Part shown: positions 17,248-19,586 of the stretch, piece by piece
Numbering within the stretch: position 1 is the stretch's first letter
Layout: each line of letters begins with the position of its first letter
Source of the DNA: Promethearchaeota archaeon
GTDB lineage: Archaea; Asgardarchaeota; Lokiarchaeia; Sigyniarchaeales; SOKP01
Assembly (NCBI GenBank): GCA_016926735.1
Contig: JAFGOA010000025.1
Coordinates: forward strand, 1 to 37,699
DNA: 37,699 bases
Reading direction: 5' to 3'
Notes under the pieces: model-generated
Database searches by the model: none
The model's input: the letters and a program-made list of their open reading frames with translations, nothing else
Told to the model about the DNA's origin: nothing
Program-made: the position numbers and the translations under genes

Positions 17248-19586
17248 TTTATATCTCTTAATATTTCATATGCTTTATTAGCAGCATTTTCCCAAGTAAA
17301 TTTATTCCGAATATCATCAGAATCTTTCAGGGCTTTTTCTTTATATTTCCAATAATTAATATAAACATCTTTCATAACTAAACTTAAATCATTAAAATCT
17401 GGCTCATAATAGTTTCCTGCATCAAATGGAATTTCCTTTTCTATTTTTACAGGATGACCTTTACCTTCAGCAAATTCTAGTTGACCACTACAATTAGAAT
17501 AAATTGATGGTGTACCACATGCCATAGCTTCACAATTATGAACAGTTGCGTTAGCCATTAAATATGAATTATCATTATCAACTTCTAGATTATAAACATA
17601 ACCATTATATTTTTTAATTTTATTATTTTTTACCAAAATTGCTAACCCACACGGATGCCACCAAGATTTATTACTATGTCTAAAATTTTTATTATTAGTT
17701 GTCCAATTTAATGTGTAACACAATCTTCTATTTTTTGTTTTTTTTGTATTTTTTCTTTTTTCAAGTTGTATATTAGTTTTTATACCAAGTCTTTGGTTTG
17801 CTATTATTAGTTGCCTAGCTAAAATATATGATGTTGTGGTATATGACGTTAAATTTTTTTCAACATTAAAACAACCATCACCTAACACCATATTATCAAC
17901 CAAATTTTTTAAAATTTTTAAATCCCCTAACAATATTTTTTCTGGTATTTTTTTATTCCAAGCTAATTTATCACAAAAATATGTAAAAAATTTACATAAT
18001 ATACTTGAATTAAACACTACTCTTAATGTATTATGAATAATAGTATAAGAACCAATAGCACCAAAATGTTTTTTCATATCTAAAATAATTTTTTCAGCAA
18101 TATGAATTTCCGTTTTTGCATTTAATGTGAAAATTACTTTTGAGTTGCCATCAGTTCCTTCTGCAATATACCAACCAAATAAAAATGACAAATCCCAAAT
18201 ATTAATATATCTATTATATTTAATTAATTTACCATAACAACTATATCCAGTTTTATACCAAATTTGGTTATCATCATATAATAAATTATCATCTAATTTT
18301 AATAAATCAAAATTAATATTTTCATAATAATATTGACTTATTGTTGTTCGAATAACAATATCACCCATATTAACATTTTTAGACTTTATCCATTCTGGCT
18401 CTAATTTTGGTAAAATTTTAAATCTATTTTTTTTAGTTATAAACCTATCTCGTTTTATACAATATACTGGGTGTTCTGGGGTTAGCTCTAAAGTTTCTAT
18501 ATCACCATAGAGTAAAATTTCATTTAAATTGCCACTATAATATTTTTTAAATGTGTTCAACACCTTTTTATTTTTAGATGTGTGAGTGATTACATAATCA
18601 TCTTTTTTAACATCTTCTATATTTTTAAATTTATTATTACTAAATATTAATTTACCATTAGGTAAACATAGTGGTAAATTCCAACCTTCTGATCTTGAAC
18701 AAGATAAAAACACGTGACCATTCTTTAAATAATTAATATAATCTTCCCGTTTTGGAAAATGTATAATTTTAATTCTACTATCGTTTAAATTGTAATGTGA
18801 TAATCGTTCTTCGGTAGATTTGAGATTATCATCTGAAAATGTATTATCAACCGAAATTATTAAATCAACTGGATCATTAGCATCAAAAGTTTTTAAGAAT
18901 GTTTGAATAATTTCCGTTGTCGATTTTCTAAATTCCCACCGACCAAATAGAATAAATTTAAATCTATTATCAGTATAGTTATCAATATTAGGATTAAAAT
19001 ACGCAGGATGAAATATTTTTTCATCAATAGCTTCTGGAACAATAAAAACCTTATCTTCTGGATAACCTTGCTCAACTATACAATCTCTTTGCCATTTTGA
19101 TGGACACCAAAATTGGTCATATTTTTTAAGAATATCAAAAAAATCATCATTATATCTAGTAGATTCCCAAACATTATATGCAATTTTAAAACCGTTATAT
19201 TTATCTAAATTAAAGAAATATTGATGGTTTGTTGTATTTAATATAATATCTATAATTTTATCATTATCATCAAATATATTATATCCATCATATACTTCAT
19301 AATCTATTAAATTTGAACCATATCTACCAACTGCATTAGGATCACAATATAAAGTTTGAATACCTATCAAATTTCGTTGATATTCTGATAAATATTCTTC
19401 ATTTTTATGTGGATCAAATTTACCATCAATTTTTTCACCTAAACCATTCCAAGTTTTACCAACGGTAAAGTTTCTAATTCGTAATTTAACTATTTTACTT
19501 AATGCAGTAAAAAAATCTCTAGCGTGAGCATTATATCCAGTTTGTCCTATAAAACTAGTATGTGCTTTAATTGATATATTATCCAT
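17244..19586 (-). CDS. glycosyltransferase (GT-B, group-1-like) interrupted by an intein
   Basis: Extein junction ...SRSEGWNLPL|C...HN|CEAMACGTPSIYSNCSGQLEFA reconstitutes the E-x7-E GT4/GT1 motif EGWNLPLxEAMACGTP. Confidence 0.75.
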   Translation of the reverse strand: MDNISIKAHTSFIGQTGYNAHARDFFTALSKIVKLRIRNFTVGKTWNGLGEKIDGKFDPHKNEEYLSEYQRNLIGIQTLYCDPNAVGRYGSNLIDYEVYDGYNIFDDNDKIIDIILNTTNHQYFFNLDKYNGFKIAYNVWESTRYNDDFFDILKKYDQFWCPSKWQRDCIVEQGYPEDKVFIVPEAIDEKIFHPAYFNPNIDNYTDNRFKFILFGRWEFRKSTTEIIQTFLKTFDANDPVDLIISVDNTFSDDNLKSTEERLSHYNLNDSRIKIIHFPKREDYINYLKNGHVFLSCSRSEGWNLPLCLPNGKLIFSNNKFKNIEDVKKDDYVITHTSKNKKVLNTFKKYYSGNLNEILLYGDIETLELTPEHPVYCIKRDRFITKKNRFKILPKLEPEWIKSKNVNMGDIVIRTTISQYYYENINFDLLKLDDNLLYDDNQIWYKTGYSCYGKLIKYNRYINIWDLSFLFGWYIAEGTDGNSKVIFTLNAKTEIHIAEKIILDMKKHFGAIGSYTIIHNTLRVVFNSSILCKFFTYFCDKLAWNKKIPEKILLGDLKILKNLVDNMVLGDGCFNVEKNLTSYTTTSYILARQLIIANQRLGIKTNIQLEKRKNTKKTKNRRLCYTLNWTTNNKNFRHSNKSWWHPCGLAILVKNNKIKKYNGYVYNLEVDNDNSYLMANATVHNCEAMACGTPSIYSNCSGQLEFAEGKGHPVKIEKEIPFDAGNYYEPDFNDLSLVMKDVYINYWKYKEKALKDSDDIRNKFTWENAANKAYEILRDIK
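17535..18668 (-). mobile_element. intein (378 aa) with LAGLIDADG homing-endonuclease domain
   Basis: Begins with Cys (CLPNGK...) and ends ...TVHN followed by Cys; LAGLIDADG blocks LFGWYIAEGTDG and MVLGDGCF. Confidence 0.75.

Follow-up and report, generated by a model that had tools for sequence, protein, structure and literature searches.

The inteins of solved structure that lie closest to the element described here, TliVMA and PhoVMA (7qsu, 7qss, 7qst), PI-PkoII (2cw7), PI-SceI (1vde) and PI-PfuI (1dq3), all consist of a Hint domain split by a two-motif LAGLIDADG homing endonuclease, and their hosts are V-ATPases or DNA polymerases of archaea or yeast. In the surveys that we searched, intein hosts are replication, repair, packaging and DNA-modification genes: the word "glycosyl" is never mentioned in the survey of Novikova et al. 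(2016; PMC4760082), a 2025 survey of actinobacteriophages lists 19 host proteins, C5 methylase and thymidylate synthase among them, and no glycosyltransferase (bioRxiv 10.1101/2025.01.02.630785), and the Jug huge-phage paper reports inteins and leaves glycosyltransferases unmentioned. Here we analyze a 37,699-nucleotide (nt) stretch of DNA (contig JAFGOA010000025.1, positions 1 to 37,699 of the forward strand, deposited under assembly GCA_016926735.1 as a Promethearchaeota archaeon; hereafter "the window") in which a 378-amino-acid (aa) insertion interrupts the E-x7-E motif of a glycosyltransferase (GT) of family 4 (GT4). We consider it highly probable that this insertion is a canonical class-1 intein with a two-motif LAGLIDADG endonuclease, placed between x6 and x7 of the motif in the genome of a T4-like huge phage, and predicted to splice, to cleave DNA and to be homing still. 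It is a textbook intein in a host family unreported in the surveys searched, and it brings no new mechanism. A search of the accessible literature for inteins in glycosyltransferases returned nothing relevant, with most subscription journals and the intein databases outside its scope, so novelty is not proven.

The interrupted gene is a single open reading frame (ORF) of 780 codons plus stop, coding for a precursor of predicted mass 91.8 kDa, and is divided as follows, in window coordinates.

17244..19586, minus strand: precursor gene, GT4 glycosyltransferase with intein (ORF list; Pfam profiles Glycos_transf_1, LAGLIDADG_3 and Intein_splicing; predicted masses)
18669..19586, minus strand: N-extein, 306 aa, last residues EGWNLPL, that is E300 and x1-x6 of E-x7-E (collinear with intein-free homologues)
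17535..18668, minus strand: intein, 378 aa, 44.5 kDa, class 1, with embedded LAGLIDADG homing endonuclease (profiles, fold, motifs, open frame)
17247..17534, minus strand: C-extein, 96 aa, first residues CEAMACGTP, in which x7 is the +1 Cys and the second Glu follows (homologue alignment and the solved enzyme 2r60)
17532..17534, minus strand: +1 Cys codon, residue 1 of the C-extein and position x7 of E-x7-E (translation)

A first-pass annotation, made from the letters alone, had described an insertion of 378 aa with Cys as its first residue, His-Asn at its end and Cys as the residue after it. Minus-strand translation of 17535-18668 gives just this, 378 codons running from CLPNGKLIF... to ...LMANATVHN and corresponding to precursor residues 307-684, while the plus-strand translation of the same segment is full of stops, which assigns the feature to the minus strand. 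The insertion frame contains no stop among its 378 codons at a guanine-cytosine (GC) content of 22.7%; 2000 shuffles held 39.7 stops on average and never fewer than 16, the base composition gives a probability of about 5e-19 for such an open frame, and the other two frames of the segment carry 38 and 72 stops. The same annotation had the E-x7-E motif split exactly (EGWNLPL / CEAMACGTP), and the break does fall between x6 (Leu306) and x7 (the +1 Cys), the motif reading E300-GWNLPLC-E686 in precursor numbering. Splicing in silico yields a product of 402 aa and 47.3 kDa that reads ...EGWNLPL-CEAMACG..., with the ligated-junction peptide ...GWNLPL-CEAMACGTPSIYSNCSGQLEFAEGK.

The intein carries the following motifs and domain.

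18633..18668, minus strand: block A CLPNGKLIFSNN, with the Cys1 nucleophile (invariant in alignments of 29 and of 19 inteins)
18453..18497, minus strand: block B ETLELTPEHPVYCIK, with T63-P-E-H66 as its T-x-x-H (T63 and H66 invariant)
17769..18200, minus strand: homing endonuclease domain, approximately intein residues 157-300 (LAGLIDADG_3; PI-PkoII alignment; Foldseek match to I-DmoI)
18147..18176, minus strand: first LAGLIDADG motif GWYIAEGTDG, acidic residue Glu169 (of 18 other aligned GT-hosted inteins, 17 retain GxYIAEG)
17868..17885, minus strand: second LAGLIDADG motif LGDGCF, acidic residue Asp264 (GDG in 19 of 19 GT-hosted inteins; D264 conserved in at least 90%, G265 invariant)
17559..17606, minus strand: block F NGYVYNLEVDNDNSYL (V358, N360 and the DNSY string conserved)
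17535..17558, minus strand: block G MANATVHN, with penultimate His377 and terminal Asn378 (N378 invariant, H377 conserved in at least 90%)

Both strings that had been read as LAGLIDADG motifs in the first pass are thus located, and blocks A, B, F and G are all present, the last two as VYNLEVDNDNSYL...TVHN. When the intein was aligned with 28 relatives, C1, T63, H66, G165, G265 and N378 proved invariant and H377, D264, V358 and N360 at least 90% conserved, and these residues correspond to blocks A, B, C, E, F and G; additionally, the +1 Cys is found in every GT-hosted and methylase-hosted relative examined. The LAGLIDADG_3 profile scores 29.2 bits, over the Pfam threshold of 22.5, and by sequence the intein matches the solved intein PI-PkoII (E = 4.5e-5) and also archaeal VMA inteins. 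An AlphaFold model built on the 29-sequence alignment reached a predicted local distance difference test score (pLDDT) of 89.1 and a predicted template-modelling score (pTM) of 0.86; an earlier model from a 4-sequence alignment, at pLDDT 49, was unusable. Foldseek searches of the Protein Data Bank (PDB) gave as best matches of the model, over its full length, the endonuclease-containing inteins TliVMA (7qsu; E = 1.6e-20, template-modelling score (TM) 0.72), PI-PkoII, PI-SceI and PI-PfuI, all at probability 1.00, and the endonuclease part matched I-DmoI and I-Tsp061I over about 180 columns with a target-normalised TM of 0.55-0.68. The predicted model shows the alpha-beta-beta-alpha-beta-beta-alpha pseudo-dimer fold of a LAGLIDADG endonuclease. 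The solved inteins and the window intein are alike in Cys1, TxxH, the terminal His-Asn and the +1 nucleophile, as they are in domain layout, whereas sequence identity between them is just 12-16% and the window intein sits in a phage sugar transferase. Taken together, the Pfam profiles, the PI-PkoII match and the predicted fold agree with the original call of an intein with LAGLIDADG motifs: the insertion has every sequence and fold feature of a class-1 intein, its Hint fold being that of the predicted model, and the endonuclease has every feature of the two-motif, monomeric LAGLIDADG type, with a predicted enzymatic activity.

The host protein becomes recognizable once the insertion is removed. 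On the unspliced protein the Pfam profile Glycos_transf_1 gives a weak match in two pieces (26.9 bits), whereas on the spliced extein it gives 46.3 bits (cut-off 26.4) over a continuous stretch from 206 to 327 that crosses the junction at 306/307; splicing in silico and aligning to GT4 proteins, the check that the first-pass annotation had proposed, thus came out in its favour. The spliced extein is also above the thresholds of Glyco_trans_1_4 and GT4-conflict in Pfam and scores 112 bits against phrog_2170, a family annotated as glycosyltransferase. A search with the spliced sequence recovered an intein-free protein, P0001, which has 402 aa like the spliced product, is 99% identical to it and is carried by 24 syntenic phage contigs; a second 402-aa protein, P0002, is 94% identical with the segment exactly absent, and over 100 additional homologues, at 50-70% identity, align collinearly through the insertion site, likewise lacking exactly the 378-aa segment. 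Neither of the two findings that the first-pass annotation had named as refuting it, missing intein blocks or glycosyltransferase homologues that contain the segment, was thus observed. Six of the contigs that carry P0001 (L001-L006) have the gene order of the window, namely NUDIX, a weakly Gp23-like gene, transferase, PTH2 and Dam methylase, and once 17535-18668 is removed the extein DNA aligns to their transferase DNA without a gap and with 16-17 mismatches in 1209 nt.

The position of the insertion within the motif rests on a solved GT4 enzyme, the sucrose-phosphate synthase 2r60 (retaining, with an E-x7-E motif), whose likeness to the spliced extein is distant (26 bits). SEGWGLPLCEAMACG of P0001 aligns with YEPFGLAPVEAMASG of 2r60, which is the E-x7-E motif of that enzyme (E-PFGLAPV-E), and this alignment places the insertion between x6 (Leu306) and x7 (the +1 Cys). 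The N-terminal half of the host transferase is a phage-specific variant (phrog_2170), unlike the solved GT4 enzymes. By profile and motif the host protein is a GT4 glycosyltransferase (GT-B fold) of predicted activity; none of the NCBIfam equivalogs came near its cut-off on the spliced host protein, and for this reason donor and acceptor are left unassigned.

The extein is not the only GT4 protein to be interrupted in this way. A word-indexed protein search with the intein returned three relatives: two C5 DNA methyltransferases and P0121 (locus L008), an incomplete homologue of the transferase in which an intein of 56% identity occupies the same insertion site. The extreme rarity of GT-hosted inteins that this search implied was overturned by an exhaustive phmmer search with the whole 780-aa protein against 1.84 billion cluster representatives, where 19 of the 150 best matches contained a homologous intein. 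One of these, P0186 (781 aa), aligns from residue 2 to residue 780 at 64% identity and has the same small-gene neighbourhood (L090). The first-pass view that the host gene is unusual therefore holds in that no glycosyltransferase appears in the surveys searched, and fails in that related inteins recur at the motif in these 19 homologues. Four insertion points, all in a stretch of about 13 residues around E-x7-E, account for the junctions of the GT-hosted inteins and are given below with a slash at the point of insertion.

Site a, E-x6/C-E: window and eleven other proteins
Site b, E-x5/C-x-E: six proteins
Site c, E-x2/C: one protein
Site d, EAMA/CG: one protein

P0186, P0187-P0189, P0191, P0193, P0197, P0121, P0295 and others belong to the same intein clade at 35-64% identity and share the E-x7-E motif; they differ from the window in that some are at sites b, c and d and many of their hosts are multidomain proteins of 1200-1600 aa. 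No identical or near-identical copy of the window intein was seen among the GT4-hosted inteins found in metagenomic proteins, and a scan of IMG/VR with the intein found no relative. All GT-hosted inteins keep C1, T-x-x-H, GDG, the block-F string NSY and the terminal HN followed by Cys. The acidic AEG or SEG of the first LAGLIDADG motif is kept in 18 of 19, the exception being P0188 (AKG), and the endonuclease domain is conserved like the splicing domain (67% vs 61% in P0186). The contexts that we sampled (L091, L092) appear phage-like.

In a rough neighbour-joining tree, built without support values, the GT-hosted inteins form one clade in which sites a and b are interleaved, and the sister of this clade is a group of inteins at the P/C(Q) catalytic motif of C5 DNA methyltransferases. 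These inteins of phage and metagenomic methyltransferases (PF00145; for example P0122-P0168 and loci L009-L088) dominate the 80 metagenomic loci and 65 proteins retrieved with an intein profile and are the nearest relatives outside glycosyltransferases, at 22-35% identity over the full length. They share with the window intein the block pattern VYN.EVE.DNSY...VHN/C and the use of a conserved Cys as +1 residue; the host protein differs, the target being GxP/CQ as against LPL/CE in the glycosyltransferase, and the GWYIAEG form of the first LAGLIDADG motif is distinctive of the GT-hosted group. Intein identity roughly follows extein identity in the nearer homologues. P0197 departs from this, with an intein 46% identical and exteins 24-26% identical, a mismatch that suggests transfer of the intein between distant GT4 genes.

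Two distant GT4 homologues of about 1400 aa, P0318 (residues 139-616 and 868-1302) and P0327, carry two inteins each, one at E-x7-E and the other in the N-terminal domain at ...SGPA/C...N/CDGGGYARMN. Still more distant members of the intein family (L039, L052, L070, L071, L076, L080; L010, L034, L035, L037) occupy other conserved motifs of metagenomic phage-like genes and fall into two groups of sites, ...IGP/C...N/CYGYQWR (thymidylate synthase-like) and ...PAH/C...N/CWTPWF.

Strain comparison provides occupied and empty forms of the same site. The intein is present in the window strain and absent from L001, whose backbone is nearly identical, most 150-nt bins showing 0-3 differences, interrupted by short highly divergent patches. 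Between window positions 6200 and 24800 these patches reach 10-40% divergence, and relative to the junction they lie about 1950 nt upstream, 300 nt downstream (a small ORF of 88 vs 70 aa) and 1800-2100 nt downstream; they suggest frequent short-tract recombination in this phage population. An apparent unusual identity of the transferase gene between the two strains was ruled out, the whole backbone being nearly identical with scattered divergent patches. Within the transferase, 15 of the 16 differences from L001 are concentrated in one tract.

18669..18797, minus strand: candidate co-conversion tract, 129 nt of the N-extein adjoining the insertion point (15 of 16 extein differences from the intein-free sister allele)

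Five of these differences are in the last 12 nt before the insertion point, and one turns the near-invariant Asn of EGWNLPL into Gly; downstream of the insertion there are 0 differences in 291 nt, so that outside the tract a single base distinguishes the extein from the intein-free allele. In the tract the window strain equals a third, more distant, intein-free strain (L007) save at positions -4 and -1. A breakpoint shared with L007 at the junction was ruled out, since the identical tract runs from -510 to +50. The reconstructed empty site reads GGAATTTACCACTA/TGTGAAGCTATGGC, and the empty-site types are ..GGAATTTACCTCTT/TGTGAAGC.. in L007 and ..GGGGTCTTCCACTT/TGTGAAGC.. in L001. The divergent tract is a candidate trace of co-conversion during homing, and would fit equally well with a conversion event in which a divergent empty allele erased the intein.

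The residue at x7 was readable in 188 intein-free homologues; 165 of them have Ile there and 12 have Cys, the remaining 11 having some other residue. The Cys-x7 alleles are scattered in a rough tree of the intein-free homologues, and no fewer than two base substitutions separate an Ile codon from a Cys codon. Furthermore, the N-to-G change three residues upstream of x7 accompanies 5 of the 12 Cys-x7 alleles as against 3 of the 176 others (Fisher P = 2e-5, with relatedness ignored). This pattern is compatible with repeated contact with the intein and is no proof of it. The glycosyltransferase had been said to be under homing pressure; the presence/absence polymorphism between strains and the conserved endonuclease domain suggest such pressure, as distinct from demonstrating it. 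A broader and more doubtful proposal, which we offer tentatively, is that the E-x7-E motif of phage GT4 glycosyltransferases is an undescribed intein hot spot with at least four insertion points, occupied by one clade that is sister to the C5-methyltransferase inteins and has moved between GT4 proteins with 22-26% extein identity, the Cys-x7 alleles being scars of repeated invasion and loss or else immune targets.

In the mechanism that we propose, the gene would be translated as the 91.8-kDa precursor with its catalytic motif broken. An N-S acyl shift at Cys1 would be followed by trans-thioesterification that moves the N-extein onto the +1 Cys, cyclisation of Asn378 aided by His377 would release the 44.5-kDa intein, and an S-N shift would re-form a normal peptide bond and so leave the 402-aa (47.3-kDa) transferase active. 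The released intein would then cut intein-free copies of the gene in co-infecting phages site-specifically, and repair from the intein-bearing copy would insert the element (homing).

Several observations weigh against the reading of the window insertion as an intein that splices and homes. Splicing and DNA cleavage are themselves predictions from sequence and modelled fold, and the Intein_splicing profile, which spans residues 28-378, scores 28 bits, under its Pfam threshold of 35.8. Many inteins have Asp at a position of block F where the window intein has Asn, and the common block-F His is likewise missing; both features are clade-wide. Regarding mobility, 3.8% of the positions in the 18-kb alignment of the window strain and L001 lie at an equally sharp patch boundary, which makes the case for co-conversion statistically weak, and the tract is compatible with gain and with loss of the intein alike. 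Neither the 780-aa protein of the window nor any other record of this strain's intein-bearing allele turned up in the protein collection. Finally, the related allele at L008 has an in-frame TGA in block F (L008 1998-2000; JGI 3300043326 contig Ga0480371_0050673) where the window has Gly (GGT), an instance of decay occurring in this intein family. The frame of L008 continues after the TGA through ...YVYNIVVENDNSYLMSNATLHN/CEAMACGTP, and for the TGA there are three possible readings: an error in sequencing, recoding of the stop, or a nonsense mutation of an allele in decay. Recoding of UGA in the window itself was ruled out, since TGA ends 14 of its 46 long ORFs and suppression barely lengthens ORFs.

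These points bear on three rival explanations, none of which is favoured by the data. The intein may splice with a dead endonuclease, being inherited vertically and gained or lost by ordinary recombination alone. That cleavage is only predicted, that P0188 has Lys for the acidic residue of the first LAGLIDADG motif as a sign of decay within the clade, that the tract adjoining the junction is weakly significant, and that the intein-bearing allele looks rare beside 24 intein-free contigs would all fit this explanation. We nevertheless regard it as unlikely, because Glu169 and Asp264 are both intact in the window, because the endonuclease domain is conserved like the splicing domain across GT-hosted inteins of 35-64% identity, and because the clade is spread over four insertion points and over GT4 exteins only 22-26% identical to that of the window (P0197, P0311), a distribution that is hard to explain unless the endonuclease was active at some time. 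A non-splicing intein in a transferase copy that is a pseudogene heading for loss seems to us extremely improbable. Splicing is only predicted, the insertion breaks the catalytic motif, the related allele at L008 has a premature stop, and intein-free alleles dominate the sampled contigs of this phage; against this stand a 2340-nt frame fully open at 25% GC, the integrity of all splicing residues, the single base that differs from the intein-free allele outside the 129-nt tract, and the finding that divergent intein-bearing homologues keep conserved extein residues at the intein-free rate.

This last point comes from a constraint test on 123 alignment columns in which 60 intein-free sequences show at least 97% conservation. 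Of these columns, the extein of the intein-bearing P0186 keeps 122, and that of P0187 keeps 85%, with intein-free controls at similar distance keeping 74-88%; the more distant intein-bearing P0188, P0189, P0191 and P0193 keep 61-69%, and the matched-distance controls cover P0187 only. At least for P0186 and P0187, then, the exteins appear to be under the same constraint as intein-free proteins, which would be expected only if the intein splices out. A third explanation sees in the intein a co-opted post-translational switch (redox, temperature or substrate) that would time transferase activity during infection. It has the merit that an intein inside the catalytic motif must render the precursor inactive, and that the C-terminal junction has three cysteines within six residues of it; a disulfide trap could arise among Cys1, the +1 Cys and the neighbouring Cys of CEAMAC, and other inteins, RadA for example, are documented to splice conditionally (cited in PMC4760082). 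The data hold no sign of regulation, however, closely related strains live without the intein, retention of the endonuclease is what one would expect of a selfish element, and inteins as a rule sit in catalytic motifs, and we therefore hold a switch to be very improbable.

With the reading of a splicing, homing intein retained, the main interest lies in the recurrent use of E-x7-E and in the paired occupied and empty alleles, which in such close genomes would be material on how inteins spread in uncultured huge phages. If the hot-spot proposal is true, the homing cycle could be watched in nature in these closely related huge-phage strains with and without the intein. A sugar-transferase family would be added to the known intein hosts, and E-x7-E would be marked as the most constrained stretch of the phage enzyme. 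For annotation, a 780-aa "hypothetical protein", the label borne by the related allele P0121, would be better described as a GT4 enzyme of 402 aa with a mobile element inserted, and a like description would suit a set of metagenomic proteins of 700-1600 aa. Additionally, a compact cysteine-dependent intein family from mesophilic AT-rich phages could serve protein engineering.

The genome that carries the intein has a GC content of 24.8% in the window and encodes a T4-type gp32 single-strand-binding protein, a Dam methylase, a CHAP endolysin, an RlaP nucleotidyltransferase and PTH2. The best matches of gp32, at 42-46% identity, are in uncultured huge phages of 634-735 kb (LR756501-4, LR745206), homologues of the transferase occur on contigs of up to 531 kb, and a DNA search against deposited and cultured phage genomes found no close relative. 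From the phage gene content and the gp32 matches we read the host genome as that of a T4-like huge phage known just from metagenomes.

Directly upstream of the transferase, and overlapping its start by 8 nt, a gene at 19579-20589 (minus strand) encodes a protein with a weak match to Gp23, the T4 major capsid family (21.8 bits, cut-off 24.4), and the homologous genes in L005 and L007 show this weak match too. Should it prove genuine, a virion protein may be the target of the transferase. In the window, the D12-class Dam methyltransferase (13648-14472, minus strand) is an intact ORF of 274 aa, whereas in the syntenic, intein-free L001-L004 just a 92-aa ORF with the Dam domain is called (10752-11030 in L001), and the BLAST alignment of this region breaks at about 230 nt of the window as against about 34 nt of L001. 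An RlaP-family nucleotidyltransferase (1112-2293, minus strand) and a PTH2 peptidyl-tRNA hydrolase (16255-16668, minus strand) form an RNA-repair-like set in the window, where no tRNA genes were found, and the syntenic L001 has an RNA ligase domain (PF09414) at 12463-13077. A candidate second intein in the window (ORF 16031-16255, 16 bits in a tiny search space) was set aside, as it looks like compositional noise. Among the syntenic contigs, L002 alone carries a TnpB-type fragment (Cas12f1-like_TNB; 19-408), situated at the contig end. Lastly, the window encodes at 31216-33714 (minus strand) an 832-aa protein without a match in the PHROG families that resembles the eukaryotic major vault protein, with Pfam scores of 95.7 bits for MVP_shoulder, 30.9 for Vault_3 and 23.7 for Band_7; it is collinear with solved vault proteins of similar length, 861-893 aa (query 439-696, chain 447-711; E = 1e-13), and a vault-protein homologue is unusual in a huge phage.

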